Counted from the stretch's first letter, positions 24,869-43,000 are shown. The stretch: 64,000 nucleotides of DNA from Planctomycetia bacterium TMED53 (GCA_002167285.1 NHDG01000060.1:6208-70207), one strand, 5' to 3'. Notes: a model not told the origin generated them from the letters alone. Numbers and translations: made by a program.

Positions 24869-25598
24869 GGTTTACCTCTTCTGGGTCCCTCGTCACGATT
24901 CGTGCTTTGCTTCCGCAAAACACGATGGCAGAACGCATGTCATGCCCCTCAGTGTCAGCAATGTATCGCCATTTATTCTCGCCGATCTCTGGTAGTTCAG
25001 ATTTGATAGGTCCCTCGAGTATTTCCGCATTCGGTTCCCCTGAAAAGTGGCGTAGGGGCAGAGTCATTCCAGCGCCATGAGCTTTTACCATCGCTTCTTT
25101 TTGTACCCAGAGGTGAAAGAATGAGGTTCTACGTTTCTCTTCTTCGGTCTTTGACCAGCCTTCCTGTTCTTCTATGGAGAAGCAGCGTTGTGCTAGATCA
25201 TCGATGGGGGATTCTTTCCTGATTCGTTCCAGGTCAATCCCCAATGGTGTTTGCTTGGAAACTGCCAGAATCGCGTATTCACCACAGTGGCTCAGATTGA
25301 ATTGGAGAGAGGCCTCTCCATTCAGGATAGGTTTGCCGTGGCCTTCTATCATCAAGGGAACCTCTGCGGGAGAGCAATCAAGGTAGTTGGCAAGGATTCG
25401 TCGCAATCCCAATCGAGATCGAAAAGAGCGTTCTCCCAATTCTGGAAAAATACCTTGATCGATTCGCGAGCGTTCCTCTTCTACGAGTTCTGCAAGATGA
25501 AAGTGAGGTTCGGCAGGGTTTCCACTGAGTGAGAACTTCCAAATTTCAATATCGATGGGGCTATCGGTTATGACGTTGGATTTAGAATCTGAATTCAT
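24849..25598 (-). CDS. pfaE: 4'-phosphopantetheinyl transferase (Sfp/PfaE type)
   Basis: GKPIL, QFNLSHCGEYAILAV, LGIDLE and FFHLWVQKEAMVKAHG (WxxKEAxxK) motifs. The ATG at 25598 overlaps the oleD stop as ATGA. The track start at 25712 would overlap oleD by 118 nt. Confidence 0.8.
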   Translation of the reverse strand: MNSDSKSNVITDSPIDIEIWKFSLSGNPAEPHFHLAELVEEERSRIDQGIFPELGERSFRSRLGLRRILANYLDCSPAEVPLMIEGHGKPILNGEASLQFNLSHCGEYAILAVSKQTPLGIDLERIRKESPIDDLAQRCFSIEEQEGWSKTEEEKRRTSFFHLWVQKEAMVKAHGAGMTLPLRHFSGEPNAEILEGPIKSELPEIGENKWRYIADTEGHDMRSAIVFCGSKARIVTRDPEEVNLSRWSL

Positions 25599-26599
25599 GT
25601 GGAGACGGACTCCGATTCGCGCAGTGAAGATCGCAGGTGCTTCATTCCTTCTTCTGTGGAGACTTTTGGAACCCAATCTAAATCTCTTTTTGCGGCCGAT
25701 AGATCGAACCAATGACTGGTCGATTGCTGTCGAACAACGAATCGGGTGACCGGTGGTTCTCCGTTGAAGAAGGGAGTTTTGTACAGCGATTCAATCAGCC
25801 AGCCTGCGAAGCGAGCGACTGCTGGAGGCAACGTGGGTCGAATCAACGGTAGCCCCTCGCACTCCAGGAATTGCTGAATCAAATCTTCTGGGGCAATCGG
25901 TTCACCATTAGAGATGAAGTATGCTTTGCCTCTGCATGCGGGATTTGAATCCAATTTTTCCAAAGCACAAATGTGAGCATCGATCGCATTGTCGATGTAG
26001 CAAGCATCAATTTTCATCCCCGGACGACGCACGAGTTTCAGTTTATTGTTCCGAGCTCTATCGATGATCCTGGGAAACAGATGGCGATCACCGGGGCCCC
26101 ATACGAGATGCGGGCGCAATGCGATGGTTTTCAATTGTTCATCATTGGCGGAGAGCACCGCGCCTTCGGCGAGAGCTTTTGTTCGCGGATAGTCGGCCAA
26201 GAAATGGTCAGGGTAGGGTTCTGATTCGTCGATACCATTCTGATCGCCTCCAGAAAAAACCACACTGGGAGACGACGTGAAGATCAACCTCTCGATGCCA
26301 TTTTTACGGCACGCATCGATCACATTTTGAGTTCCAATGACGTTGGTGCGTTCAAAATCTTCTTTGGGTCCAGAGATTGCCGCTAACGCAGCAACATGGA
26401 ACACCGCATCTACGTCACTGAATGCTGCCATCAATTGATCAAAGTGATCGAGGGATCCTCGGTAGTGAGTCCCTCCAAGATCGTTCAAATGTGGATATTC
26501 TCCCCTTTGAAAGGTGACGATTTCATGACCCATTTCGATAAGGCGTTGGGCAAGGCGGCCACCAATAAACCCACCAGCTCCAGTGATGAGGCACTTCAT
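25595..26599 (-). CDS. oleD: NAD(P)H-dependent 2-alkyl-3-oxoalkanoate reductase (3-beta-HSD/epimerase-type SDR)
   Basis: MKCLITGAGGFIGGRLAQRL Rossmann motif and YPRTK (YxxxK). 334 aa. Position after oleC with an ATGA overlap. Confidence 0.75.
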   Translation of the reverse strand: MKCLITGAGGFIGGRLAQRLIEMGHEIVTFQRGEYPHLNDLGGTHYRGSLDHFDQLMAAFSDVDAVFHVAALAAISGPKEDFERTNVIGTQNVIDACRKNGIERLIFTSSPSVVFSGGDQNGIDESEPYPDHFLADYPRTKALAEGAVLSANDEQLKTIALRPHLVWGPGDRHLFPRIIDRARNNKLKLVRRPGMKIDACYIDNAIDAHICALEKLDSNPACRGKAYFISNGEPIAPEDLIQQFLECEGLPLIRPTLPPAVARFAGWLIESLYKTPFFNGEPPVTRFVVRQQSTSHWFDLSAAKRDLDWVPKVSTEEGMKHLRSSLRESESVST

Positions 26600-28239
26600 G
26601 AAAGATATCCCCCGAGGCGGGTGGCGAGCACCTCCCTTTGAATTTTTGCATTGTGACGAATATCGACCGGGAAAGGGCCAGTGATCACTATCGCTTCAAT
26701 GAGAGTGGTCAAAGGATTTTGTTTTGCAAGTGTGGTCAGTTCATCGCGAATCTGCTGGTGAGGGATCTTCGTCGTCGGATCAGGTTCAACGCACAAGATC
26801 GGACGTTGGGAGCCGTAGGGTCCGACTCCGACAAGCGCGGTACGAAAGACACCTTGATGCCCCTCAAACATTCTTTCTGTGGCGACAGTGTCGATGGGCC
26901 CATGAGCGGTGTGGATTCTTTGACTGGTTCTACCCCTGAACCAGATATCCCCATTCTGATCTCGAGTACCGATGTCTCCGGTGCGGTGCCAGATTCGCCC
27001 ACTTGAATCCAAGTATTTGTGATCGTGATTGGCGGATTCATCAAAAAGGTATCCGCGGCTCACAGTTGATCCCGTAACCCAAATCTCGCCGACGGTGTCA
27101 GTAGGAAGAGGCTGATCTTCAGGGTTTCCCGATGGCTCAACGATCTGCATCTGCACTTCGGCGACTGGAGCACCGATGTATACGCCTTCTCCAGCGAGGG
27201 TGTGATCACGAGTTTCGAGAATCTTCTGATGACTTGTGTGGCACAGGGGGAGCCCTTCCGTTGCGCCGTATGGAGTTTCGATCGCTGTCTCAGCGGTAAC
27301 GTGCATAGCCAGGCGCTCGATCTCTTCGTGACGGGCAGGGGCGCCGGCACTGATGATTCTTCGAAGTCCTTCGATTTTTTGGCCTGAAGTATGTAAGTAA
27401 TCAGAAAGCGATTTTAAAAGCGCAGGAGAGGCGAAAAGATTGGTGACCTTGAAGTTTTTTATGAGATCCAGAAGGTGCTGGGGGTCTGCTTTTGCAGGCT
27501 TCGTGAAATCCATGACTGGAACTACAGAGGTCATTCCTATCGCTACTCCAAAGAGTCCGAAGAGTGGGAATGTTGGAAGATCTACCTCTCCGGGTGAAAG
27601 CTGGTGACAGCGAGCGAGAGCTTCGACTTGGGCTTCCAATTGTCCATGATGAGCCATCGCTCCCTTTGCTGGGCCAGTACTTCCGGAGGTGAACAAGATT
27701 GCAGCGAGTTCATCTCGATCGAGAACAGGCCCTTCGTAAGGAACCATGGAAGGGATCTTTTTTCGAAGATCTGTCAGATGATAAGTCCCCGGAGGGAATG
27801 GACCCTCGCCGACTCCAAATCGGTGTTGAATCGTCGAGCGGCTCCAGCCCAAGAGAACTCTCGCCCAATGAGCCTTGCTGACTCCGACGAAGGCTTCTGG
27901 CCGTGCTCGGTCGAGGCATGATTTTAATCCGGAGATGCCTAGGCCTGGATCGACGAGGACTGGTGGGGCACCAATTCGCAACAATGCGAAGGTACACGCA
28001 AGAAATTCTCTTCCAGGTGGAACCATCAGCACCGTCCGCATTCCCCTGCGAATCCCACGTTGAATCAGAGCATGGCAAGTTTGATCGACGAGATGGTCTA
28101 ACTCTTTGAAGGTTCGCTCCTCAAGTTGACCATTTCGAAACTCCCTCACGGCAATTTGCTCTGGATGAGCTCGAGTATGTTGGCGTAAGAGCCTGTCAAC
28201 TCCTGCCTGTGGCTGAGCGAGAGGGGCGATTAAACTCAA
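26596..28239 (-). CDS. oleC: Olefin beta-lactone synthetase (AMP-dependent synthetase/ligase family)
   Basis: ILFTSGSTGPAKG, YGATEG and TGDIG adenylation motifs. An in-frame TTG at 28239 overlaps the oleB TGA (TTGA), giving 547 aa. The track ATG at 28365 would overlap oleB by 130 nt. Confidence 0.75.
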   Translation of the reverse strand: MSLIAPLAQPQAGVDRLLRQHTRAHPEQIAVREFRNGQLEERTFKELDHLVDQTCHALIQRGIRRGMRTVLMVPPGREFLACTFALLRIGAPPVLVDPGLGISGLKSCLDRARPEAFVGVSKAHWARVLLGWSRSTIQHRFGVGEGPFPPGTYHLTDLRKKIPSMVPYEGPVLDRDELAAILFTSGSTGPAKGAMAHHGQLEAQVEALARCHQLSPGEVDLPTFPLFGLFGVAIGMTSVVPVMDFTKPAKADPQHLLDLIKNFKVTNLFASPALLKSLSDYLHTSGQKIEGLRRIISAGAPARHEEIERLAMHVTAETAIETPYGATEGLPLCHTSHQKILETRDHTLAGEGVYIGAPVAEVQMQIVEPSGNPEDQPLPTDTVGEIWVTGSTVSRGYLFDESANHDHKYLDSSGRIWHRTGDIGTRDQNGDIWFRGRTSQRIHTAHGPIDTVATERMFEGHQGVFRTALVGVGPYGSQRPILCVEPDPTTKIPHQQIRDELTTLAKQNPLTTLIEAIVITGPFPVDIRHNAKIQREVLATRLGGYLS

Positions 28240-29144
28240 ACCAACCCTCCATAAACAGGTTGTCTGTTTCTGAACTTGCGAATGATGGGGAGTAGGATCT
28301 CCGGAAACTCGTCGAGGAGAAGGTGTCCGGCCTCGGGCCAACGATGAATCTCTGCATTCGGCCACAAGGTATTCCAGTGGTGTAAAAAGTCTGTATTGAA
28401 GACTGGATCTTTTTCACCCCAGAGCAGGAGCAGGGGATGATTCCTCAGTCGTTCGAGATTTTTTTCAACTTCGTTTAACGATTCCCAAGAAGGATCTTCA
28501 CTACTGACAGGGATATCTTCGACAAATCGGTGAACCGCCAAGCGATCTTTGTAATTTTGGTATGGATACCGATACCCACTGCGCTCGGCTCGTGACAATT
28601 TTCTCGACTTCACACCGATCAACAAAGTGCCATTTAAAAAGGCATTGAGTCTTCGAATAAGCCACTCTCCCAGAGCTCCACGAGCCGGGCCTAGAATGGG
28701 TGGAAAGGCCATCCCTTGCTGGAGAGGGAAGGCTGCGGTGTTGATGGCAACCAAGTGTTCAAAGCGTTCCGGTTTTCTTCCAGCGACGCCAAATCCGATG
28801 GCTCCTCCCCAATCGTGGGCGATCAAAGTCGCCTCCGAATCGATGCCCAGGTCATCGAGCAACCTCTCCAAGTCGTCAATCCTGTCAGCAAGCCGATAAC
28901 TGTAATCGGCCTCGGAGGGTTTGTCTGAGAGTCCGCAACCTACGTGATCCACCGCGATGACGCGATTCATCGTTGAGAGACCCTGGATGAGATTTCTGAA
29001 GTGAAATGACCATGTGGGATTTCCATGAACGCAAATGATGGGCTTGCCTTCTCCCTCATCGACGTAGTTCATTCGGATCCCATTACCTCTATCCCAAGAT
29101 TTTCCGGTGAAAGGGTATTCCTCCTGGAAACTTCTCTGCTTCAT
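28236..29144 (-). CDS. oleB: Alpha/beta hydrolase, haloalkane-dehalogenase-like (beta-lactone decarboxylase OleB)
   Basis: HGNPTWSF and LIAHDWGG (Asp nucleophile) motifs. The ATG at 29144 overlaps the oleA stop as ATGA. An alternative ATG lies at 29156. Confidence 0.75.
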   Translation of the reverse strand: MKQRSFQEEYPFTGKSWDRGNGIRMNYVDEGEGKPIICVHGNPTWSFHFRNLIQGLSTMNRVIAVDHVGCGLSDKPSEADYSYRLADRIDDLERLLDDLGIDSEATLIAHDWGGAIGFGVAGRKPERFEHLVAINTAAFPLQQGMAFPPILGPARGALGEWLIRRLNAFLNGTLLIGVKSRKLSRAERSGYRYPYQNYKDRLAVHRFVEDIPVSSEDPSWESLNEVEKNLERLRNHPLLLLWGEKDPVFNTDFLHHWNTLWPNAEIHRWPEAGHLLLDEFPEILLPIIRKFRNRQPVYGGLV

Positions 29145-30199
29145 CGCCACTCCCATGCCAGCATTCGGCAGACCAGTCCACTGCCAATCCCCAAAAAGGC
29201 AACCTTGTGTCCACTTTGTAAAAACCCACGCTCTGCTGCCAACGCTGCAGTCATCGGTATCGATACGGTACCGATATTGCCAAGAAACGGAAAGGTGATG
29301 AAATCCTGGTCGGGCGAAATCCCTAGCGATGGCATGATTTCAAGACGGTGAGCTGACCCCACCTGATGGCAAATGGTTCGGTCTACATCGGATGGTTTCC
29401 AATACAGCTGTTCTAGAAATCTGTTCCAAGTTTTTACGCCCAGCTCGACCCCGTGGCGAAGTACTCCAATGGCATCTGTCTCCATGTATTCGAGACGCTC
29501 TGCAGGATCTTCGAGGTTAGGAGGAGTTTTGACTCCCCAGCGACAGAGTTGGTGCCACCGAGAATCACTTCCATGGGCAGAGCCGAGAAGGCGAGGACCT
29601 TTATCACTGATTCTACTCGACGTCAAAATCATCGCTGCGGCTCCTGATCCGCCGGTCCAAGTGGCCAGGGATTTTGTGAATAGATCCATATCAGGATTCT
29701 TTTCAATCTTGGCACAGGCGATCTCGACGATTTCCCTCGCACTTTCACAACTTACAACGACAGTTACTTCATGGCGTTGGGAGCGAATCGAATCTTCGGC
29801 GAGTACGACGGCATCGATGGCTCCCAAGCATGCGTTCGATAGATCATGAAGTTCGACATGGTCACCTGCACCAAGATGGTGAGCCACAGAGCAGGCGGTT
29901 GCGGGTTCAAATCCTTCTCGGCAAACGCCAGCGTATATGATTCGATCGACCGCCGAGATATCCATTCCCGCCCGATCCAGCGCCTTGCTCACCGCTCGAG
30001 CTGACATTTCTGATATTGAGGTATTCCGGTTCCACCAGCGGCGTTCTTTGACCCCGGTCAATTGTTCGATTTGCCCATTGGGAATCCCGAGTCGTTTCCA
30101 GGTGGAACTCATCATCTGTTCGATTTCGACACTGGTGACAACACAGGGTGCCATCTCTATTCCAGTGGCTGCCAGATGTAGTTCGGGGATCGAGGTCAT
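29141..30199 (-). CDS. oleA: OleA thiolase (FabH-like, non-decarboxylative head-to-head Claisen condensing enzyme)
   Basis: Strings close to my recollection of Xanthomonas OleA: DLSNACLGA (active Cys), GGSGAAAMIL, WHQLCRWG, CHQVGSAH, GNIGTVSIP and FLGIGSGLVCRMLAWEW. ATGA overlap with the upstream PKS gene. Confidence 0.85.
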   Translation of the reverse strand: MTSIPELHLAATGIEMAPCVVTSVEIEQMMSSTWKRLGIPNGQIEQLTGVKERRWWNRNTSISEMSARAVSKALDRAGMDISAVDRIIYAGVCREGFEPATACSVAHHLGAGDHVELHDLSNACLGAIDAVVLAEDSIRSQRHEVTVVVSCESAREIVEIACAKIEKNPDMDLFTKSLATWTGGSGAAAMILTSSRISDKGPRLLGSAHGSDSRWHQLCRWGVKTPPNLEDPAERLEYMETDAIGVLRHGVELGVKTWNRFLEQLYWKPSDVDRTICHQVGSAHRLEIMPSLGISPDQDFITFPFLGNIGTVSIPMTAALAAERGFLQSGHKVAFLGIGSGLVCRMLAWEWR

Positions 30200-33100
30200 C
30201 TTGAATTCCTGCGCTGAATGGTGAAGTCTTCCATGCTGTAGATAGGAAGATCATCTACGATGAGCATTCCATCCGCTCGAAGGAAGCCCTTTTCGTCATC
30301 GATCTCATTCACTTGAGCTTCGACGACCACTCGTTTTCTACTTGGAATCACCTGCCCCCGGTAAGTCCAGCGATGGGGAACGCCAGGAAGAATGCTTCTG
30401 TGGGTAAGTGAGCCATTTGGCCCCCAGCGATCGACGGCGATCTCTTGTAACAGTTGCAGCATCGATTCCAGGCCCAGGCTTCCTGGCCATACGGGGTCAC
30501 CCATAAAGTGAGCTTTGAAGAACCAAGCATTAGGATTCACATTGATCGATCCACGAATAAATCCCAGGCCAGAGCTTCCTCCATCGGGGATGTATAAATC
30601 GACTTCATCGAGCATGCGAAATGCTTTTGTTGGTCCTGGTTGTCTTTGATCGAGCGGGTAATACTTTCCCCTCATCGATTCTCTGGGAGAAACAGTTTTT
30701 GGTACCGCACCTGGCAGTCCTACCTGCTCTGCTAAAGCTTCTGGAGGGAAGAAGCCAAAGTAAGTCTTTCCTCGATAAAGAGGGCCCTTTGAATCATCTA
30801 CCTCTAGATCAAAGTGTTGGATCCACATCCCTGCACCGTGATCTGCTGCAGTCATTTTGACCCGAGTCGTGAGGAGTCCGCTTTCCGCAGTGATCGGTCT
30901 TTGCAGGGTGGCTTCACCACCAAGGTTTCTGAAGTGGAGGGGGTCTGGTGAGGTCAACGCTGAACCGACGTACCCAGCAAGCCAACCACAGGGTTGGAGA
31001 GCAATTTCCAACAAGATCGCAAACGGCATTTCACCACTGCCTCCAGCTGCGAAATACCAGGCGTCCGGAGGAACCATGTACTCTGCCGTGCACTCTGCGC
31101 CAGCTTTGACAACCCAAGGTTCTCCTTTGACGTCGACGATTCTATCGAGGAAACAATAAGGTGGACCGGGGAGGCGGGCGAGATATCGATCACCATCGAA
31201 GATTTCGTATCGATCCCCAAAAGCAGCCGAAGGTAATCCTGTTGCGAATGAGAGGATTTGATCATGGCTGTAGATCGTTGGCTTTGTTGAAGAGGTGAGT
31301 GGGTGATCGCCACCACCGCCAGGGGCAGTAGGCAGAATGTCAGTGTCGGCAGCAGTAGGGGAGACTGGGTGGTTACTTCGCCAAAGGTTAGTGAGGGCTT
31401 CTTCACTCAGACCAACGAGTCTCAGGGACAACCCCTCCATCTCGACGATAGGTTTTCCATCTGCGAGCATTACTGCACTTGCGATCACATATGGATTTGG
31501 CTGAAGCCCAATTTCGTGGACGTGAACTTCATAGCTGACTAATCGAGTCTCAGGGGTCACTTGTCCTCTGCACCGGAGTCTGCCTGCGATTCCAGGAACT
31601 GGCATTGCTGAAATCTCTTCAGCCTCTCCGACCCAACCCCAACTCATCAACAGGACCCTGAGTGTGTGGATGCAACTTTCGTACATCAGAGTTCCAGGCA
31701 TGACGTGATCATCGGTGAAGTGGCAAGTGAGGAACCAATCATCGGGGTGAATCTTTAATTCTCCAACGACGTGACCCAAACCGTAATCTCCACCCTTTGC
31801 TTCGATCCGGGTGATTCGATCGATCAGGGTCATCAATCCACCAGGTAGGGTCCATGGTGTTTTTAAATTAATCCCTTTAAATGCAGGACCGAACACTTGT
31901 CCGAGTTCTCCCTGCCGGAGCAGGTTGAGTGCAGTGCTATCCAAATCGGAACGGTTTGTCGATGTCGGAGGGCTCCAGTCAGCGGGGCATTTCGGTTGAG
32001 GTCGAGGACGATGGGGAGACTGAACGATGCCCCTTCCCGAAGCGAGTTCTTCTGGGGAAAAGAATCCTGCACAGCCATCGCGCATCATCAAAAATGGTTC
32101 ACCGTCCACAGTGGCATCGAATTCAAACCTGAAGAGGAGTGTCTTGTCCTGGCGGAAGAACTCGTTGATTCGGATATCGTAGATGATGCTTTTTCCCGCA
32201 GTAGGAAGGTCTGAATGAAAAGTGATTTGTGCGTCGAGGAGTCGATAGACCGATTCTCCTCGGGTATGCAAATCAGCTCCAAGAAAGCCGGAAAGAAACA
32301 GGTCCGCTTGACCGCTCTCAACGGCGATGGAGGTCGGAATCCTCCCAGAATCGAGATACCAACTACCCATCTTGACATCATGAGCTGTAACGATTCTCCC
32401 TGAGCCAAGGGTGAGGGGCTCTCCCTCCATCGATAAAATTCGATCTACCAACATCAATGGTTCGTCCGGAAGGCGAACTCTGGTTGGAAATAGATCCGCC
32501 TCTCCATGCTTCATTCCTAGAACTGGACCCACTGACCCCCGGGCAAACTCAAGGCATTGAGCTCGGTTGAACAACGCGCCTGAATCAGCCTTCGATGTTT
32601 CATTCATACGTTCAGGAGTGCTCTGGAGGTTTTTTAACTGATCTATATCTGGGTCTGCCGTTTGCTCTGTAGCAGCTGATTCGGAGGATTCGATGCGTCG
32701 GGAGACGACTCTTCGCAATCGCTCTTCCAATCGCGCCTTCCGCATATCAGGGAGGACTTTTGACTGAGCTGAGCTAGGAGCTGAGCTAGGAGATGGGACA
32801 GGAGAAGGAGGGACAGGAGAAGGGACAGGCGAAGTGACTGCAGAGATCGCTGGTTCAAGGATTTTGTTGGGTTCTTCAGAGGGATTCGTTGTCAATCTTT
32901 GCTCCCGTTCGGTCACGGGGACTACTTCGGTTGCAATTTCAGTTGGAAGTGCGGGGCTCTTCAGATTTCTTTTCATTGAGGCAGGGAGTGCGGGGACATG
33001 TCTTGGTCCTTTGCCATCGGGAATTTCTACCAAATTCTCATCGTCTCCCAATGTTCGGATCACGGCGAAAGAATCGTTTCCTAGCAAGGGTTCAAAGTTC

Positions 33101-36100
33101 ACCGGAATCCTTTCGACTGCGCATGCCAGCAATAACCTGGTCAAGCTGAGTTCCTCAGATTCTCCGCGCCAAAAGAGGGGTAGCGTCCGATAGTTTTTAT
33201 CGCCCAGAGCTTTCCTGATTAAACGTGAACAGGAAGCTCCCGGCCCAGGTTCGATAAAGATCCTCGTTCCCTGGTTCCACATCTCTTCAATCAACTGGGG
33301 GAAATCGAACCCGTGTATCGCCTGATTCAAGATCGAGTTGGCGATGTCAGCGGAATTGATAGATAGAGGCTTGGCGGAAGCCGTGCACAGAATTTTGCTT
33401 CCATTCTTTGGAGCTGTGACGGGCCAATCATGAAGAGATCGATACTCTTCGCGGACCAATTCAACTAAGGGACAGTGCACAGAGGTGACCCCTGAGAGTG
33501 GGACCGATGACCAGCCCTCGGTTTCCGTCAGCAATTTGATCTCTGTGGGGTCTCCACCGATCACCACTTCATCGGAGGCGTTTACGAGGAGCAGGAAGCA
33601 GCGTTGATATCTGCGTAATGCCCTCTCTACTTCAGTTCGGGATCGATCGACGACACAAGCGGCCCAAGGAGTTTCCTGCATTGACTTCAGGTTCCATGCA
33701 CTTCTGGCGGCTCTAAATTCGCCACCCAACCACACATCAAACAGGTCTCCTGTTTCCATCTGGTTTTGCATTTCCCGTCGTTGCTGCCACACACCTTGTG
33801 CAAAGAGCATCGCCGTTTGTCCGAGACTATGGCCACAAGAGACCACTGGCTCGATTCCAAAACCACGCAACAAGTCTGTGCCAAATCCTCCCAATGCAAC
33901 TTGGGCGAGAATCTCTTCTCGGACATCCCCTGGTAGTGGGGTCATTGGGCTCCAGAATGCTGGGTCGGAGATCATCCGATGCAGCATTCCTCCATCATCC
34001 CGAGTAGAGGTCATGGCACCGGAAAAACGGGTCAATAACTGCTGACCTGCTCCCGAATACAAGCTTCCGGATCCTGGGTAAACGAATCCGACATCACCTG
34101 CAAACCCAAGGGCAGTCGGATGCGATCTCAGTACTTCCCAACCTTCTCCGCGAAGGTCTCGTTTTTCTTCTTCAGGAACATTTTTCGTTTCTGCCAATGC
34201 TTCACAGAGGCTGCTGTAGTCCCTGAACAGTATGCCAATCGCTTTTGATGAAGAATAATCGGACGGCTGCTTGGCGAGCCAAAGTTTCGTTAATCTAGAG
34301 GCCGAAAGTTCTTCATTTGAGAGGTGTTGCAGCCAATACTCAAAATCTGACAGAGATTTGACTGAAGAGTTCCCCTCGAGGAGCACATGTCCCCAAGGTA
34401 GATCGCCATTGATGGAGATTTTATTGTCGGCAAGTTTGGGTTGAGCCATGCGCATCAATAAAGAGCCATGGTCACCCAGGCGTCCACGAAAGTCGATGCG
34501 AGTCGTTGCTTTGCCTGTCAAAGCATGTAGCCAAGGAATCGCCGGTCTATCCATGGAACTACTGGGTAGAACAGCCGCATCGAACATCATTAGGCCTTGA
34601 ATGGTGGATAGAATTGGCGTTACACAGCCGCTGTTTTCCAGTTCAGTAGGTAGAGAGACGATACGAGTTCCTGGAGTTCGCGTAGCCTTCGAAAGGTTGA
34701 TCGGATGATCGGTGGGGCTCAAAACGATGTGAGGGCGGGAGTTTTGCCACATTGCCAGCTGGGTTGCTCTTTCAGCCGGTAGGGTTCTGCTACCAGAAAA
34801 GAGGCTGTCGGCAGCAGCGCAGCCAGTTCCTTCGAGGATCCCGTAGATGTTTTGTTGATCCTTTTCCGCATCTTCAAGTCTGCGAAGGATAAGGGCTGCG
34901 GCAGCATCGGTTCTGGGAGGCAACCCTTGTCTGGCATCATTCACACGGGAAATGACGTCGAGCCCAAAATCTGCTGCAGCGACGATGACAGCATCAGTGC
35001 TTCGATCTTGCAGGCTGTGGATTCCTTGTTCGATAGCGCGGAATCCCCCCAGATCATCATTACTCACCGTATGAGATGGACCACCTGCACCGAGATCTCT
35101 GGCGATTCGACTCGCTGCGACACTACCGAGTGCACCCATGACTCGATTGGCAGTGAGGGGATCACTGACTTCATCCTGGAGTTTATTAATCCACTGATCG
35201 ACTTCTTCTGGGCGAGCTTCAATTCCGAGTTCCTTGAGCCAAGATCTTCCTCTTTCTGGAAGTATCCAGCGCAAATGAAACAAGCTACTTCTTGGATCTA
35301 AATTCAATCCAACCAGAACCGATCCACCCAAGCCCAACTCATCCATATCGGCATGCTGCAGGGCTTCGCGGCAAACTTGTAAAAGCGCCAATTGTTGAGG
35401 TAGCAGATCCCGCATCTCTGTGGGAGGGATCCTGTAATTGACTGGAGAGCTCTTCAATGGCCCGGAGGGGGCTCCCGACGACAACTTAAGTCCCTCTTCT
35501 TCTAACCACCGTGATTCCGGAATCCCGAACTGCCCCGGCAATGGGGATTGGTCGTGAGAAAATTCATCGATCGTCAGCAGCGTTGATCTCAAAGCGGAGC
35601 AATTTTTGATGGGGCCTGCCATGGCACCAAATCCCACCACGGCGATAGGGCTGTCGGAGTATCGAGTAGTGGGGGCGGTTTTAACAACTTCAACTCTTGA
35701 AGGTGAGTACTCCTCAATCAAAAGGTGAGCGTTGATACCGCCAAAACCAAAGGCACTGACTGCAGACCTTCTCGATCTACCAGTTTGCTGAAGCCATGGT
35801 TCTGCGGCGTCCGGAATTCGGAATGGAGAACTTTCTAATGGGAAACCACCAGGTGTTTGCCGTTGATCCGGAAGAGGTGGTATCTCACCATTCTTCATCG
35901 CTAAGATCACTTTTATCAATCCGGCGCTGCCAGCAGCAGTCAGCGTGTGACCGATGGAAGCTTTAATCGATCCGAGAGCGCATTGTCCAGTATTCCAATT
36001 CTGGTCGCTCCAAAGTTCCTGCAAGCTGTTTAACTCTGTTCCATCCCCAACAGGTGTTCCTGTGGCGTGACACTCGATGAAATCGACTTCAGAAGGGGAC

Positions 36101-37047
36101 CAGCCCGCCTGTTGATATGCTCGGCGCATCGCTCTGACTTGTCCCTCACCGGAAGGCGCGAGTAATCCGCCGGATCGATCATTTGAGAGGCCCCAGCCGC
36201 GAATGACACCGAGGATCGGTTCACCATTCTCTTCTGCGTCTTTCAAACGACGCAGCCGCAAGATCCCTGCTCCCTCACCGACGACCAGCCCTTGACCTCG
36301 ATCATCGAGGGGACGGCATCGTCCTTCAGGAGAGAGCGCTCGAAGTTGTGAAAAACCCATCTGGGTAAATAGTGCGTCGGGGCGAGAGACTCCTCCAGCC
36401 AAGGCATGATCACAACGATTGGAAATTAGATCATCGCATGCTTTCGAGACGGCATAGAGTGCAGAGGCGCACGCTGCATCGAGAGTCCATGCTCCAGATC
36501 TCAATCCGAGGGCTGACCTTAATGCTGTCGCGGGGAGGGAAGCATCGTGCCGGTCAAGGGGATGGCAAGTAGGGTATCCCCTTGGCCGACGGTCATCGAA
36601 ATTAATTTCTCCGAGGACCGTTTCTTCAAGGGTGTCTCCAATAATGGCATCCGCCATCGAAGAAGTAGATTCTGTCGGAAGCAGGAGTTGTCCCAGAATG
36701 ACATGTGTTCTGTCTGGATCGAGGCGAACAGGGCTGTTGCCGACCGCTTCAATTCCTGCGTGAACAGCCAACTGAACAGAGGGATCCAGGGACTTCAGCA
36801 GTTCTTGCGAAAGATCGCCGGATCGGAGTCCATTTTCGGGATGGGTCACGAATGCTCCACGAACGGCCCTCACCCGATCAGTTTTAGGATCAGCACCACC
36901 ATTGGCGATTTCGGGAGGAAGGATCCAGCGACCCGGTGGAACCTCTTGGGTGTGATCGGCACCACTGCGGACCATTTCCCAAAATTCCTTTTGATTATGG
37001 GCTCCGGGGAAGATGAACCCTATGCCGACGACTGCGATATCAGTCAA
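30196..37047 (-). CDS. pfaC: PUFA-synthase subunit, PfaC-like with embedded acyltransferase: KS-CLF-AT-DH(FabA)-DH(FabA)
   Basis: 2283 aa. KS: DAACASALY (~36461-36489), ECHATGTP and GHTLTAAG. A second KS-like domain lacks the Cys and is read as CLF. AT: GHSLGQ (~33816-33840). Pro/Ser linker SPVPSPVPPSPVPSP. Two FabA-type DH motifs: CHFTDDHVMPGTLMYE (~31691-31736) and AHFMGDPVWPGSLGLE (~30475-30524). The TTG start overlaps the pfaA stop (TTGA). Confidence 0.85.
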   Translation of the reverse strand: MTDIAVVGIGFIFPGAHNQKEFWEMVRSGADHTQEVPPGRWILPPEIANGGADPKTDRVRAVRGAFVTHPENGLRSGDLSQELLKSLDPSVQLAVHAGIEAVGNSPVRLDPDRTHVILGQLLLPTESTSSMADAIIGDTLEETVLGEINFDDRRPRGYPTCHPLDRHDASLPATALRSALGLRSGAWTLDAACASALYAVSKACDDLISNRCDHALAGGVSRPDALFTQMGFSQLRALSPEGRCRPLDDRGQGLVVGEGAGILRLRRLKDAEENGEPILGVIRGWGLSNDRSGGLLAPSGEGQVRAMRRAYQQAGWSPSEVDFIECHATGTPVGDGTELNSLQELWSDQNWNTGQCALGSIKASIGHTLTAAGSAGLIKVILAMKNGEIPPLPDQRQTPGGFPLESSPFRIPDAAEPWLQQTGRSRRSAVSAFGFGGINAHLLIEEYSPSRVEVVKTAPTTRYSDSPIAVVGFGAMAGPIKNCSALRSTLLTIDEFSHDQSPLPGQFGIPESRWLEEEGLKLSSGAPSGPLKSSPVNYRIPPTEMRDLLPQQLALLQVCREALQHADMDELGLGGSVLVGLNLDPRSSLFHLRWILPERGRSWLKELGIEARPEEVDQWINKLQDEVSDPLTANRVMGALGSVAASRIARDLGAGGPSHTVSNDDLGGFRAIEQGIHSLQDRSTDAVIVAAADFGLDVISRVNDARQGLPPRTDAAAALILRRLEDAEKDQQNIYGILEGTGCAAADSLFSGSRTLPAERATQLAMWQNSRPHIVLSPTDHPINLSKATRTPGTRIVSLPTELENSGCVTPILSTIQGLMMFDAAVLPSSSMDRPAIPWLHALTGKATTRIDFRGRLGDHGSLLMRMAQPKLADNKISINGDLPWGHVLLEGNSSVKSLSDFEYWLQHLSNEELSASRLTKLWLAKQPSDYSSSKAIGILFRDYSSLCEALAETKNVPEEEKRDLRGEGWEVLRSHPTALGFAGDVGFVYPGSGSLYSGAGQQLLTRFSGAMTSTRDDGGMLHRMISDPAFWSPMTPLPGDVREEILAQVALGGFGTDLLRGFGIEPVVSCGHSLGQTAMLFAQGVWQQRREMQNQMETGDLFDVWLGGEFRAARSAWNLKSMQETPWAACVVDRSRTEVERALRRYQRCFLLLVNASDEVVIGGDPTEIKLLTETEGWSSVPLSGVTSVHCPLVELVREEYRSLHDWPVTAPKNGSKILCTASAKPLSINSADIANSILNQAIHGFDFPQLIEEMWNQGTRIFIEPGPGASCSRLIRKALGDKNYRTLPLFWRGESEELSLTRLLLACAVERIPVNFEPLLGNDSFAVIRTLGDDENLVEIPDGKGPRHVPALPASMKRNLKSPALPTEIATEVVPVTEREQRLTTNPSEEPNKILEPAISAVTSPVPSPVPPSPVPSPSSAPSSAQSKVLPDMRKARLEERLRRVVSRRIESSESAATEQTADPDIDQLKNLQSTPERMNETSKADSGALFNRAQCLEFARGSVGPVLGMKHGEADLFPTRVRLPDEPLMLVDRILSMEGEPLTLGSGRIVTAHDVKMGSWYLDSGRIPTSIAVESGQADLFLSGFLGADLHTRGESVYRLLDAQITFHSDLPTAGKSIIYDIRINEFFRQDKTLLFRFEFDATVDGEPFLMMRDGCAGFFSPEELASGRGIVQSPHRPRPQPKCPADWSPPTSTNRSDLDSTALNLLRQGELGQVFGPAFKGINLKTPWTLPGGLMTLIDRITRIEAKGGDYGLGHVVGELKIHPDDWFLTCHFTDDHVMPGTLMYESCIHTLRVLLMSWGWVGEAEEISAMPVPGIAGRLRCRGQVTPETRLVSYEVHVHEIGLQPNPYVIASAVMLADGKPIVEMEGLSLRLVGLSEEALTNLWRSNHPVSPTAADTDILPTAPGGGGDHPLTSSTKPTIYSHDQILSFATGLPSAAFGDRYEIFDGDRYLARLPGPPYCFLDRIVDVKGEPWVVKAGAECTAEYMVPPDAWYFAAGGSGEMPFAILLEIALQPCGWLAGYVGSALTSPDPLHFRNLGGEATLQRPITAESGLLTTRVKMTAADHGAGMWIQHFDLEVDDSKGPLYRGKTYFGFFPPEALAEQVGLPGAVPKTVSPRESMRGKYYPLDQRQPGPTKAFRMLDEVDLYIPDGGSSGLGFIRGSINVNPNAWFFKAHFMGDPVWPGSLGLESMLQLLQEIAVDRWGPNGSLTHRSILPGVPHRWTYRGQVIPSRKRVVVEAQVNEIDDEKGFLRADGMLIVDDLPIYSMEDFTIQRRNSR

Positions 37048-40000
37048 TGCTGGGTCTCTTCCGAAAGTTCTTGCTGTTGGAATGCCTCCACCAGGGCAGC
37101 ATCGATGACGACTTCAGCGCCGGAGAGAGTCATAAGTGGCTCGCCATTTTCATTTAGAACTTCGGCTTTGGCGCTTGCCAATGATGTACTGAATTGCTCC
37201 AGTTCGACTCTGGTTTCAAGTTCGCCCATGCGAGCGTGCCCATGAACTCGAAGTTCAGATATTGAGCAGGGGAGACAAGGAGCGCCAACGGTATCGTTAC
37301 TCCAAATAATCAGTGCCTGAAAGATGGCGTCCAGTCGAAGAGGATCCAGCAGCCAGAATGGAAGTAATGGCGATCGGAATCCCTTACCAGGAGATGGCGT
37401 ACCAATAGCGGTAAAGGTGATCCCCTCATCGTTCATGCCCAGGATTTTATTCAGGCATCGGAAACTGTCACCGTGGAATAGAAGATCCCCATGGTCGGCA
37501 GCTGGAGCAGTTGTTCGTGCACTAATCTTCGAGGAGACTTGTTTTTGTTGTCCCAGAAGGACTTCCGCTTTGGCGTGAAGTCGGGCTTCATGATCGCGGC
37601 TGCGAATTTCCACGGGAACAGAGAGTTGATCGCCATTGTAAGTGGGAGGACCGCTGAAAAACGCGAGCTGAGCGATTTCTCTCCCGCCGATGACGATTCC
37701 TTTCAGGACTCTGAAATTGCTGATGCCAATAAAGTCGAGACCCGGGTTCCGATGTGCGGCTACCTGGGCGCACCACTCAACCAGTAAGGCGGCAGGAATT
37801 ACTGCACGACCTTGAAGGACATGATCACGAAGTGTTGGGTCACTCTCACAGGAGATATCGAGTGCCAATTGCTCTTCCCATGGGATCTCTGAAGAAATCG
37901 CAGGTTGTTGGGAAGGTACGACAGCAGGTTTGGAAATTTCCTTGCGAGTGACCTTCGGGCCAGGGAACTCCCCAATCTCATGTAGGAAGTCATGATGAGT
38001 TCCAAAAGATTTCAGTGCGATGTGATGACAGTGCGCTTGGGATCGAACCTGAGAGACGAAATGATCGGCTCCCTGCGCTAAATCGATCAATCCCACTCCT
38101 TCTGAATGGAAGAGATCTCTGAGGCCGGAATCGACCATGCCGCCATCCCAAGGCCCCCAGCCGATGCTGTTTACGTGGCAGCTTGGCCGCTGTTGAGACT
38201 CTCTGATCGCCAGTTGGTTCAAAGTTTCGTTGGCTGCGGCATAGTCCGATTGCCCTTTTCGACCCAAGGTTGCCGTGGTCGAGGAGAAAAATTGAACCAA
38301 GTGGAGATCGTCAGTTGAGCAAAGATCGAGCAAGTGCAGAGCAGGATCCACTTTGGTTTGCCAAACCTTGACAAAATCTTCATCCGATTTGTCTACGATC
38401 CAACTATCTGCCAAAACTCCAGCGCCATGGATGATTCCTTTGACAGAACCATGACGCTGTCGTGCTTCATTGAGTACTGCTTCAAGGGAATCACGCTGGC
38501 GAACATCAACGGAGCGGTAGGTCACTTCGCAACCGCGGGATCTGAGTTGCTCAATTCTATGAAGGATCTCTCGCGATTGCCTGATCAGATTCGCTTCACC
38601 GCGAATGACAGCCGGAGATTTTTCTCTTGCGGCCAGCTCGAAGAGTTTCGCCTCCAGTGACTCATCGGGAACTCCATGAGCCCAGTTGGGTTCGTGGCCA
38701 GGCTCTGGAGTTCTACCCAGCAGATACAAAGCAGGACTCGAGTCACGGGTCAGCGCCTCCAAGCATTCAGCGGTGACTCCGCGGGCTCCTCCGGTCACGA
38801 TCAAAAGATCCCCTGAGTTGATCGGAGATCGACCAAAATGTTCTGGCTGGATCGCTTCTAGATACAACTCTTGTCGACCTCCTTGTTGAAGACCGACCCA
38901 GCGCTCTTCACCATGAAAGATCTCTTCAGTCACTTCTCGGGCGATCTTTGCAGGGGGAACTTCTACAGATTCAAGATCGATTCCGCGCACGACAAAGTCG
39001 GCCCATTCTCTGGCAGCGCAACGGGTCATGCCCAATAAAGCGCCTCCGAGGGAGGACTCACTAAGGTCGGCCCCTGAGCTTTGATCTGAAGAGATTCCGA
39101 AGTGTCCACCCAGTCGGGTGATGACGTGAAGTGAAGATTGGCCTTTGGGGTGCTGGCGGAGACGCTTTCCAGCCTCTCGTATCCAGCGGAATGCCTCTAG
39201 AGGTTCGTTTGAACCAGGTTCCAACGATCCAATCAGAATCATTCCGCCTAATTCACAATGAGGTGATTGGATCGGAGTGTTGTCATTCATACTCCAATGC
39301 CTGGCATCCACATTACGCTGGGAGAGTTCTTTTACAATTTCTTCTCTGAGGAGGGGATCACTTCCGATGACCCACCACTGCGCTTCTTTGTCGAGTTCGA
39401 GTTCTGTCGTAGTTTCCCTTTGGGGGAGTGTTCGAACTGCTGGTTTTGCGAGAATCAGTGGATTCGAGTTTGTGGCACTTGGAATGCTTGGTTCGGGAAC
39501 TTCCGAAGTGGTCGAGATCCCATCGGTTTGGTCATACCAACTGGAGATTTGTTGAATCGTTCGTAAAGTTGCGAGCTGATCGGCAGGGATAGCCGGTAGA
39601 TCGGGACGGTGCTGCCTCAGTGCTGAGAGAATCTCAACTCGCTTAATGCTGTCAATTCCCAGGTCTGATTCCAAGTCGAGTTCAACTCCAATGGCATCTT
39701 CCGGATATCCCGTTTTTTCAGCGATTACTGAGAGTAAGAGCGGAATCAGTATTGCAGATTCGGACGGCTCGGAGCTCTCGGAGGGAAGAGGAGTCGGCTC
39801 TATATTAGGCGCGGTTTCGACTGCGGCTTCGAAGGTTACCCCGGAAGTATTTGTTTCAGGTGATAAGGCTTCTACCAATTGGAGAATCGTGCGCAAGGAC
39901 CCCAGCTGCTCAGGTGGAATCGTCGGTAGATCACTTCGCTTTTGTTTCAGGGCAGAAAGTATTTCCACTCGTTTGATGCTGTCGATTCCCAAATCACCTT

Positions 40001-43000
40001 CAAGATCCAGGTCCGTGCCGATAGCATCCGTGGGATATCCAGTCTTCTCTGAAATGATCTCTCTCAGCAAGTCCGCAAGACGTGAGGTCGGTTGTGTCTC
40101 AGCAACAGTCAAAGTGTTGATGGGAGAATCGGTAGATCCAGGATCAATAGTGGGTGTGGGTTGGTTTGGCCCGTTGTTGGAAAGTTCACTCAATGATGGA
40201 GTTTCAGAGTAGTGATCGATAATTGCGGAGATGGTGCGCAGTGATCCCAGTTTTTCTGCGGGCAATGCTTCTAAGTCGGGTCGGTGTTGGCGCAAAGCAG
40301 AGAGAATTTCCACGCGTTTGATGCTGTCTATACCAAGATCTCCTTCGAGATCGAGGTGGATATCTATCGCGCTCTCTGGGTAACCGGTCTTTTCCGCAAC
40401 CACTTCGATCAGTAGATCTTTCAACGGATTTTGTAGGCTTGCTGATACTGTCTCTGTACGAACTTCGAAGCTGGAAGGCTCAGGTTCTCCCGAGGCAGCA
40501 TCTGTCATAGGTATCGCTGCCGCAGTATTTCCAGCAGGTAGATAATGATCCACCATTGCATTCAATGTACGGAGTGACCCCAAGATCTCTGGCGACAGTG
40601 TTGGTAAATCGGGTTGCTGTTGCCGGACAGCTGACAAAATTTCTACCCGCTTGATACTGTCGATTCCCAAATCAGCTTCTAGATCCATGGAGGGATCGAT
40701 CGCCTCGAGGGGGTACCCTGTTTTTTCAGCGACGACCTCTGTCATGAACTTCAGAAGCGGCATTCGCTCTGGGGCCGTTTCTGGGGTTGAAGACTTTTCA
40801 ATCGACTCCGAAGCAACCATTGATTCAGATTCGTTGAGCTTTGTCGGTGCCTCTTCAATCTCCGAATAATGGGAAGAGTGGCTAGTGGGAGGGCTTCCTG
40901 GATTCACGCTTCCTGAATTCACGGTTTCTGAATTCAAGGAGAGTGACAAGGCCTCTTCAGCATTCCGTTGTGAGCGATCCAGTAATTCTCTGATCTCCTG
41001 AGCCTGTTCGAGGAGATCCATCAAAGCTTCCTGCTGATCGAGCAAGTTCGATGAGGATTGAACTGTTACTCCAACTTCTTTTGAAGCGGTCAGCGGTAAC
41101 TCGGGTGGGAGATTTACTCGAGCGCTAGAGCTTGCAGGTAGATGGGCTGGAGGTCCGGGCACGGGTCGTGCTTCCCGAGATGGGAGTCCTTCTCCAGGGC
41201 GTAAGTTTGCTCCTCGCAGTGATACCGCTGGACCTTTTCCTGTTACCTCTGGAGCCTGTGTTCGAGGTTTCCAAGTAGAAAGTTGGATGGGGTAACCCCT
41301 GCTTGCGATGACGGCAACAGTCCTCGCCAAAGCCCGAGAGTCTTCTTCACTTCCATCGATACTTTGAACCGTGATATTTCCCGGATGGGAAGCAGTGATG
41401 GATCGAATCAATCCACCGAGTACTTTCCCGGGTCCGACTTCAATAAATGTGGTGGCTCCTTGATTGACCATCGATTCAATCATCTCTTTAAAGAGCACCG
41501 GTTTTGCAATCTGGTGGGCTAGAAGAGAGCGGCAGGTTGTTTCGTCGAATGGATAAGGTTGCCCTGTTGAATTTGCGAAAACTTTTCCGGAGGGTTGGCC
41601 GAATCCGACTTTTTGCAAAACTTCTTCGAATGGTTGTGCTGCCGAAGCCACTTTGCTGGAGTGAAAAGCAGCGGAAACAGGAAGAGGGATACAGCGGATC
41701 CCCCGACTCTCAAGAAGTGATTTTGCAGCTTCTATCGCATCGAAACCGCCAGAAAGGACCGCTTGTTCAGGAGCATTTCTATTGGCAACGACGAGATCTG
41801 GCCAGTTTTCTTGAACGAGTTTTTCGAGCTCATTCAGTGGAAGTTGAACGGCGAGCATGGTGCCAGCATCCATTCCGCCTGCTTCTGCCATCAGGCGTCC
41901 ACGGAAGTTGGACAGTTGATGGAAATCAGATTCGCTGATGGAGCCGCTGGCAGCCAGGGCTGTCAGTTCACCATATGAGTGCCCTGCAAAGAGGTCGGCT
42001 TGAACTCCCAATCCGGTCAAAATTCGGAAACAGCCCAGGCTGACGGCTCCGATGGCAGGTTGTGCCACCTCTGTTCTTCGCAACTGCTCATCCAGGGAGT
42101 TTTCGTCACTGTTCCAAGAATGTACGGGCCATATCTTGGCTGCCAATCCGGTTTCATTTTCGGGATTCCAGTAACTGGATTCTGCGGCATCCAGGGTTTC
42201 CATCATCGCCGGAAAACGGCAGGCGAGATTTCTTCCCATGTTGATTTTTTGGGATCCTTGGCCCGGGAATACCATGGCTAATGATCCCTGAACTGGGCCA
42301 TGATCTCGATCGATACCAGCCGGGAGTTGCCAACGAGCCGTTTCCTCTTGTGACAATTTTTGCAAGGCTTGATCGAGGAGATCAGCGAGAGAGCCAGCGC
42401 CCGAGTAGGTGATCAGTAATCGGTGCTCTGCTGTGTGTCGGAATGATTGTCGAGTTTCACGGGCCATAGTAGAAATGGAAGAAGTGGAGTGATCATCTAG
42501 CAACCTGCTTCGGAAATCTCGAATCGTTGCTGACAAAGCTTCTTTTTCATCCGCCGAAAATGCCAAAATTTCAGTGATTCCTTGCCAATCGGTTTCACTT
42601 CGCCTTGTGTTCGCTTCTTCAAGAACTGCGTGAAAGTTACTCCCTCCAAAACCGAAGGAGGAGACAGCAGCACGTCTGGGATATTCAGATGGGCGTACCC
42701 ATGGACGAGCAACCTCTTCCACATGGAATGGGCTGCTGGGATCGGACAAGGCTTCAAGAGGCTTACGAATCTTCAGGCTCGGTGGTTGAACTTTGTGGTG
42801 CAATGCAAGTACAGCTTTGATGAGGCCCGCTGCTCCTGCTGCTGCCTTGGTGTGTCCGATTTGAGACTTCACAGAACCCAGTGCCACGCTGCCAGGGGTT
42901 GTCCCTGCTTGGCGATAAACCTCGTCGAGAGCTTTGAGTTCCGTGGCGTCGCCGACAGAAGTTCCTGTTCCGTGAGCTTCGACCATACCAATCGTACTGG

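Follow-up and report, generated by a model that had tools for sequence, protein, structure and literature searches.

Type I secondary-lipid gene clusters, as described by Shulse and Allen in 2011 (PMC3098273), are defined by a fusion of pfaB and pfaC and were reported from Geobacter, Desulfuromonas, Pelobacter, and the planctomycete Gemmata; linkage to ole genes is frequent, and the clusters have been proposed as a source of olefin precursors. A cultured representative of this type has a known product; in Geobacter bemidjiensis, which makes the hydrocarbon C31:9, the genes pfaD, A, B, C, oleA, B, C, D, and pfaE are arranged in tandem (Yoshida et al. 2016, PMC4882568). The occurrence of C31:8 and C31:9 hydrocarbons in Planctomycetes was noted already in 2009 (PMC2649909). 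Here, we analyze a 64,000-nucleotide stretch of DNA from Planctomycetia bacterium TMED53 (GCA_002167285.1 NHDG01000060.1:6208-70207; hereafter the window, from whose first letter all positions are counted), focusing on an open reading frame (ORF) at 30196..37047 on the minus strand, which encodes a protein of 2283 amino acids (aa). Based on Pfam and NCBIfam scans, a homologue search, and alignment, this ORF very probably encodes the PfaB-PfaC fusion subunit (PfaBC) of a Type I synthase of the polyunsaturated fatty acid (PUFA) type, located in a translationally coupled pfa-ole operon that would, by homology, specify a C31:9 pathway. The locus adds one marine planctomycete example to the cluster type described in 2011, and the finding is real but ordinary.

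The pfaBC gene is one of eight genes that follow one another head to tail, all on the minus strand, between window positions 45766 and 24849, in the order pfaD-pfaA-pfaBC-oleA-oleB-oleC-oleD-PPTase (phosphopantetheinyl transferase), and that together span about 21 kb of a marine Planctomycetota metagenome-assembled genome (MAG), the assembly of which comprises 2.98 Mb and is 83% complete. Two junctions on either side of pfaBC were read directly: the pfaA stop overlaps the TTG start of pfaBC as TTGA, and at 30196-30199 the stop of pfaBC overlaps the start of oleA as ATGA, with AGGA a few bases upstream. ORF coordinates also place the pfaD stop over the pfaA start by 4 nt and show an overlap between oleC and oleD. 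An earlier note on this stretch had described the overlap of the pfaBC stop with the oleA start as well as a ketosynthase-chain-length factor-acyltransferase-dehydratase-dehydratase (KS-CLF-AT-DH-DH) order for the 2283-aa protein; the overlap was seen again here, and the domain order is borne out by Pfam and by matches to the solved chains 6riw and 9RY8.

PfaBC consists, from the N-terminus, of a KS, a chain-length-factor half, an AT, a Pro/Ser linker, and two FabA-type DH units (KS-CLF-AT-DH'DH-DH'DH). The KS domain covers residues 1-455 (35683..37047, on the minus strand like all features given below), with PF00109/PF02801 matches at 3-451, and its residues C193, H327, and H367 are invariant in an alignment of 13 homologues. 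A second, chain-length-factor-like KS half follows at residues ~466-900 (34348..35652; PF00109, E=1.4e-11); this half has no catalytic Cys, as the sole C[AS]S motif of the whole of PfaBC is the one at 193, and its KS His region is not conserved. Over residues 3-696, PfaBC matches 6riw, a solved KS-CLF chain of a PUFA synthase (E=8e-91). Beyond the AT, residues ~1330-1490 (32578..33060) form a low-complexity linker rich in Pro and Ser and in charged residues; a hidden domain in this linker was considered and rejected, as there was neither a Pfam match at E<=1 nor conservation among the 13 homologues. The C-terminal part is made up of two successive units of a pseudo-hot-dog and a FabA-type DH, the first at residues ~1495-1880 (31408..32565; PF07977 FabA at 1734-1870), with catalytic H1776, and the second at residues ~1925-2272 (30232..31275; PF07977 at 2139-2272), with catalytic H2180. 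Matches to PF07977 sum to 267 bits over PfaBC, in 4 stretches; both units carry the FabA signature HFxxD.V.PG, and H1776 and H2180 are invariant in the alignment.

With regard to the embedded AT at residues ~980-1321 (33085..34110), comparisons with solved structures and with the family model TIGR02816 identify a domain of the PfaB type, with a Ser in the motif GHS1074LG, H1191, and Thr1099. Among solved structures, the closest relative of this domain is Shewanella baltica PfaB (9RY8), which matches across the whole AT fold at E=7.3e-29, whereas the next-best AT and malonyl-AT (MAT) chains, malonyl transferases included, reach ~5e-6 to 1e-5 against this domain. The AT likewise matches TIGR02816 pfaB_fam at E=1.4e-21 as compared to 2.3e-9 for fabD; the TIGR02816 score of 77 bits is below the whole-protein cut-off of 144, which is set for free-standing PfaB, and Pfam Acyl_transf_1 scores the domain at 21 bits, under threshold. 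In the alignment with 9RY8, S1074 corresponds to S457, H1191 to H573, and T1099 to N482; the malonyl-binding Arg of MATs is replaced by Thr1099, and the N-terminal GQGSQ of MATs reads GSGSL. S1074 and H1191 are invariant in diverse homologues (13-sequence alignment), and the invariance of this Ser-His dyad across ole-linked homologues indicates that the AT is under selection and that it does something essential in ole-coupled synthases. The AT motif at residue 1072 (within residues 1070-1076, 33826-33840) reads GHSLG, a form typical of the window's Planctomycetota clade (found also in loci L006-L008, L043, and L047 of the survey described below), while 55 of 65 other pfaBC loci carry GYS[LM]G and the form in Gemmataceae is GLSLG. 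In addition, N1156 is invariant in PfaBC homologues, and the equivalent Asn pairs with the corresponding His in the polyketide synthase MAT DynE8. These residues suggest an active-site network that may be somewhat different from that of characterized PfaBs, with the classification unaffected.

Rather than loading malonate, ATs of the PfaB type bind acyl groups of 16 or more carbons and transfer them, set product length, and are at present regarded as candidates for the off-loading of product (PMC12895367). Acyl-ACP (acyl carrier protein) hydrolysis has been reported for some of these enzymes, at least in the studies of Hayashi (2020) and Almendariz-Palacios (2021) to the extent that these are cited in PMC12895367. 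Judged by its residues, the embedded AT is catalytically intact, and its most probable task is the handling of long-chain acyl groups, as a gate on chain length or as a relay. The view, put forward in the earlier note, that the megasynthase has no obvious off-loading domain is inaccurate because PfaBC carries an AT of the very class suspected of off-loading; this domain, with its 9RY8 match and Thr1099, had been overlooked in that role.

The C-terminus of PfaBC, by contrast, provides no release domain. The second PF07977 match extends to residue 2272, which is profile position 137 of 138, and only 11 residues remain before the stop, in agreement with the prior description of a protein that ends right after its second FabA-like DH. 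The last 390 residues were modelled with AlphaFold2 on the basis of 36 homologous C-termini; the model has a pLDDT of 90.3 and a pTM of 0.91 and shows two hot-dog folds and nothing else, with the last strand ending at position 387 of 390. When this model was compared to the Protein Data Bank (PDB) with Foldseek, FabA chains were the best matches (31-33% identity, root-mean-square deviation (rmsd) 2.2-2.4 A), the top match being 2cf2, an early fatty-acid-synthase architecture entry; double-hot-dog thioesterases are only remote fold neighbours (10-12% identity, rmsd 7-8 A). Pfam and NCBIfam scans (E<=0.1-1) gave no thioesterase (TE), AGPAT (1-acylglycerol-3-phosphate O-acyltransferase), or reductase family in PfaBC, as the earlier note had stated, and profiles and model together show neither a Pfa3-type C-terminal AGPAT nor an integrated alpha/beta-hydrolase TE or short-chain dehydrogenase/reductase (SDR)-type R domain. 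A cryptic C-terminal domain, for which structure prediction had been suggested as a check, is thus rejected by profile coverage, the AlphaFold2 model, and the fold search, with no thioesterase or acyltransferase fold found. A search of 5.8 billion proteins identified more than 3000 relatives of PfaBC; the closest 120, which were inspected and whose full-length entries are 2028-2513 aa long, all end 98-117 aa past the His of the second DH, i.e., right after that domain. As 120 of 120 stop there, absence of a terminal domain is the norm for the family and not a special trait of this protein. Canonical PfaC likewise ends after its second DH.

In the pathway that we propose by homology, the PPTase would prime the ACPs of PfaA, and PfaA, PfaBC, and PfaD would build a polyunsaturated C16-class chain (16:4n-3 type, as in Geobacter bemidjiensis and Shewanella) on the four PfaA ACPs. 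The chain would exit through OleA, the catalytic Cys of which would take a first acyl chain, condense it with a second thioester, and release a beta-keto acid; OleD would then reduce this product, OleC would make a beta-lactone, and OleB would decarboxylate it to yield the C31:9 polyolefin hentriacontanonaene. PfaBC does not need a terminal thioesterase for this purpose, and such a domain is never found in Pfa synthases of this family. Direct hand-over of the chain to OleA, as suggested in the earlier note, is plausible and the coupling of pfaBC to oleA is real, but the idea is not new, having been proposed for Shewanella, with experiments, by Allemann et al. in 2019 (PMC6463001). In that study, fadD-null E. 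coli with pfaA-E and oleA formed a 31:8 ketone, eicosapentaenoic acid (EPA) still fell about tenfold with an OleA that was catalytically dead, and the authors concluded that OleA takes acyl groups straight from Pfa ACPs (PMC6463001). For the locus described here, we would give about an even chance, by our own estimate, to OleA taking both chains directly from PfaA-ACP, and by the same kind of estimate we consider release by some route other than those discussed in this report improbable.

Tentatively, the embedded AT may instead act as the off-loader, taking the completed 16:4 chain off PfaA-ACP and passing it to CoA or a discrete carrier, with OleA then using acyl-CoA as in Xanthomonas. Consistent with such a relay are the invariance of the Ser-His dyad across ole-linked homologues, the absence of the malonyl-binding Arg from an AT that matches PfaB, and the chemical reversibility of acyl-CoA to ACP transfer by PfaB for chains of C16 and longer (PMC12895367), although this transfer has been reported in the acyl-CoA to ACP direction and, for no PfaB, from ACP to CoA. 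OleA enzymology was established with acyl-CoA, at least in the work cited on this point in PMC6463001, which also fits a relay. Because ACP-to-CoA transfer needs no ligase (FadD), the fadD-null result of Allemann et al. 2019 leaves room for this route as well; the effect of dead OleA on EPA in the same study, on the other hand, suggests that OleA physically engages the synthase and thus argues for direct transfer. The GHSLG variant present here may, moreover, differ from the GYSMG PfaBs.

A further alternative is that the AT or an unlinked thioesterase of the YbgC/FadM type frees the fatty acid, which an acyl-CoA synthetase would then re-activate for OleA. A tblastn search of the genome assembly for a second pfaB or AT gene found only this operon (the MAT of PfaA) and, on another contig, FabD/FabF of fatty acid synthase (FAS) II, confirming that there is no separate pfaB in this assembly. 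A family scan found no thioesterase among the ORFs of the window, no hot-dog 4HBT-type (pfaT/orf6) gene is linked to the pfa or ole operon in the window, and no thioesterase-like ORF was apparent by eye in the pfaBC-oleA gaps of the nine related loci that have a gap; the longer ORFs in these gaps resemble, also by eye, an oxidoreductase and a metallo-hydrolase. Other contigs of the genome carry four genes for hot-dog thioesterases of the YbgC/FadM type, but as the 4HBT_2 family, of which they are members, was found in 12 of 14 control genomes and is near-universal, their presence is uninformative. Hydrolytic release would be in line with the hydrolase activity of some PfaB-type ATs and with the tenfold decrease in polyunsaturated hydrocarbon (PUHC) reported upon deletion of pfaT in Shewanella; the orf6/pfaT thioesterase was, however, read in that study as an accessory, editing (type II) TE, and the appearance of the ketone in E. 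coli that lacks fadD speaks against an intermediate in free-acid form (PMC6463001). Such a route would also waste ATP, and we consider it unlikely.

To determine how widely the operon type occurs, we surveyed loci with one genome per species (at least 590 relatives), fetched 80 loci, and mapped the window's eight proteins onto them; counts of downstream genes were restricted to the 65 loci with at least 1.5 kb past pfaBC. In 44 of these 65 loci, oleA lies no more than 250 bp from the pfaBC stop, and it is found downstream in 53; usually oleB, oleC, oleD, and often a PPTase gene follow oleA, and pfaD and pfaA are located upstream. The same 4-nt ATGA overlap of pfaBC and oleA was found in at least 17 loci. 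The loci belong to Planctomycetota (the clade of the window itself as well as Gemmatales, Phycisphaerae, and Brocadiia), Geobacteraceae/Desulfuromonadales, Desulfobacterales, Acidobacteriota, Gemmatimonadota, Verrucomicrobiota, Elusimicrobiota, Hydrogenedentota, Sumerlaeota, and Gammaproteobacteria. Cultured strains with the operon include members of Gemmata, Zavarzinella, and Aquisphaera (loci L048, L066, and L074). Members of the window's pfaBC clade share 50-71% identity and are all Planctomycetota or unclassified MAGs. OleA was found in all eight same-genus genomes, 15 of 17 other genomes of the same family, and all six of the same order, but in only one of ten genomes from other families of the class, which suggests that OleA and, by implication, the operon were acquired once at about the order level and then descended vertically.

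In 12 of the 65 loci, no ole genes lie directly downstream of pfaBC, a finding that would be compatible with a membrane PUFA or other secondary lipid as the main product, with the ole genes merely siphoning off an intermediate as in EPA-producing Shewanella, which obtain both EPA and C31:9 from one synthase. While Shulse and Allen raised this possibility (PMC3098273), the eight genes overlap tightly here with oleA translationally coupled to pfaBC, PfaBC has no AGPAT or other lipid-incorporation domain, and the pfa-ole linkage is kept across phyla; we thus regard a membrane lipid as a doubtful main product of this locus.

The survey also yielded a number of unusual loci. In some Planctomycetales MAGs (L057:10001-15415, L058:10001-15478, and L059:14984-20209), the pfaBC homologue seems to have only the first DH unit and then a tail that resembles the linker between the two DH units, with oleA within ~100 bp; these loci would represent a single-DH variant of the pfa-ole operon. 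One locus labelled 'Bacillota bacterium MAG' (L006, QNYK01000079.1) carries an operon 54-65% identical to that of the planctomycete clade, and the contig is probably mis-binned or mislabelled rather than a Firmicute pfa-ole cluster. Apparent natural fusions of PfaBC and OleA were rejected in L029, where the tblastn alignment read through a stop codon, and in L090/G026, where a long frame reflects high GC and pfaBC has its own stop, with oleA in another frame.

OleA is encoded by a gene for a thiolase-type head-to-head condensing enzyme of 352 aa (29141..30199; NF006720, 388 bits, cut-off 285). Its best solved matches are chains of the 3fk5/3row series (E ~1e-47), followed by FabH chains (~1e-17). 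The former, which we take to be Xanthomonas OleA, have the PDB title '3-oxoacyl synthase III'. OleA of the window keeps the Cys of the NAC(L) motif, the His of HQV, the Asn of GNIG, and the Glu of FEP. As compared to 3fk5, nearly all pfa-linked OleAs (loci L006-L084) contain an insertion right after the conserved LCRWG motif; it covers residues ~222-236 in OleA of the window and is ~8-15 aa long in most loci, and that of Gemmataceae, Planctomycetaceae, and some others has 40-65 aa. This insertion may serve for docking to the synthase or the ACP, or it may be part of a substrate channel. All four OleABCD genes are present, and OleB, OleC, and OleD have the right folds, with the gene order conserved in more than 40 loci.

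A more specific view of chain termination, which we offer with considerable reserve, is that OleA serves as a dedicated chain terminator that docks on the tandem ACPs and condenses rather than hydrolyzes, with the AT re-tuned as a length gate or as an ACP-to-CoA/OleA relay. The AT of this clade would in that case combine a MAT-like His beside the catalytic Ser, an Asn partner, and the lack of a malonyl-binding Arg, and the loop after LCRWG in OleA could be the ACP- or synthase-docking element.

Several points weigh against the assignment of the locus to a C31:9 pathway with direct transfer to OleA. The OleC and OleD scores are under the curated NCBIfam equivalog cut-offs, and orthology of these two proteins therefore rests on best hit and synteny. 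The AT motif GHSLG lacks the Tyr that was found to be essential in Moritella PfaB, where neither His nor Leu was a substitute (2026 study), and the AT may thus behave differently from characterized PfaBs. With the genome 83% complete, an unlinked pfaT-like gene may be present. C31:9 as the product of this uncultured host is predicted from homology only. Finally, the evidence for direct transfer in Shewanella is compatible with a PfaB-mediated ACP-to-CoA relay.

The remaining genes of the operon are consistent with a pfa-ole cluster. The first gene (44054..45766) encodes a pfaD-like enoyl reductase (ER) of 570 aa (TIGR02814 pfaD_fam, 568 bits, cut-off 449; PF03060 NMO), and the second (37044..44057) a pfaA-like subunit of 2337 aa (TIGR02813 omega_3_PfaA, 1443 bits, cut-off 1010) in which Pfam identifies a KS, a malonyl-AT, four tandem ACPs (PP-binding x4), a ketoreductase (KR), and a DH of the polyketide synthase (PKS) type (PS-DH). 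Downstream of oleA, an oleB-like gene (28236..29156) encodes an alpha/beta hydrolase of 306 aa with Abhydrolase_1 and haloalkane-dehalogenase-like matches, and its position after oleA is kept in related loci. The oleC-like gene (26596..28365) encodes an AMP-dependent beta-lactone synthetase, 589 aa as listed, which scores 561 bits with NF006754, above the cut-off, and 460 bits with the olefin beta-lactone synthetase models, under their cut-offs of 850-900 and with matches that start at residue 58-66. The oleD-like gene (25595..26599) encodes an NAD(P)H 2-alkyl-3-oxoalkanoate reductase of 334 aa (NF042422 OleD, E=7.7e-111, 371 bits, with the cut-off of 580 not reached; 3Beta_HSD/Epimerase), and the last gene (24849..25712) encodes an Sfp/HetI-type PPTase equivalent to pfaE (NF042922 HetI, E=9e-32, under cut-off; PF01648 ACPS and AASDHPPT_N). 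Neighbours of the operon are unrelated, with a beta-helix lipoprotein gene upstream and a gene for a convergent secreted protein, then one for aconitase, downstream.

With regard to gene starts, the longest ORFs of oleC (GTG start) and the PPTase gene (TTG start) overlap the preceding genes by ~130 and 118 nt, respectively (28200-28365 and 25600-25712). Because family matches begin ~45-60 residues in, the true starts of both genes are probably downstream of these positions, for oleC ~50 codons past the GTG. The public gene call for pfaBC (2259 aa) begins at Met25 and loses the conserved KS N-terminus IAVVGIG (36973-37047); a TTG that overlaps the pfaA stop, at 37047, is more likely the pfaBC start than Met25.

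How Pfa-type synthases pass on their chains is a general question that is not specific to this locus. Compact ole-coupled operons such as this one, which is ~21 kb long and has no linked thioesterase, represent handy material for deciding between direct transfer to OleA and relay by the AT, and an answer would aid engineering of polyene hydrocarbons and of PUFA chain length.

Among known systems, the myxobacterial pfa1-pfa2-pfa3 synthases (Sorangium, Aetherobacter), the architecture of which was reportedly set out by Gemperlein et al. in 2014, share with this locus the ER-first order and an AT placed between the CLF and DH domains of the third subunit. Pfa3 ends in an AGPAT that places the PUFA into lipids, a domain absent here, and reportedly no ole genes follow in these clusters; the likeness to the myxobacterial layout drawn in the earlier note is thus a fair comparison as far as it goes, including the missing AGPAT, but the Type I tandem cluster of G. 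bemidjiensis, already described, is closer. Subunit B of the thraustochytrid PUFA synthase (KS-CLF-AT-ER) contains the same KS-CLF-AT run, and its AT-like domain has been implicated in release, at least in the work cited to that effect in PMC12895367; this eukaryotic enzyme differs in that its DH is on another subunit, its ER is fused, and its product is free docosahexaenoic or docosapentaenoic acid (DHA/DPA). Shewanella and Photobacterium strains that produce both EPA and C31:9 (pfaEABCD and oleABCD) have the same set of catalytic domains, likewise without an integrated TE, and their OleA condenses Pfa-derived 16:4; they differ in having a separate PfaB with an N-terminal pseudo-KS, another gene order, and pfa and ole operons that are separate or merely adjacent. 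In such PUFA producers, the pfa or ole operon usually has a linked gene for an accessory hot-dog thioesterase, pfaT/orf6 (unlinked in Shewanella), while no such gene is linked here. Finally, although the window protein falls into a Planctomycetota clade of its own and carries GHSLG rather than GYSLG in its AT, the Type I cluster of G. bemidjiensis Bem shows the same gene order, with the ER first, the PPTase last, and oleA directly downstream of pfaBC, and Geobacter-type pfaBC is the same KS-CLF-AT-DH2 fusion that stops after the second DH, with Geobacteraceae homologues matching the window protein over their full length at 40-45% identity.

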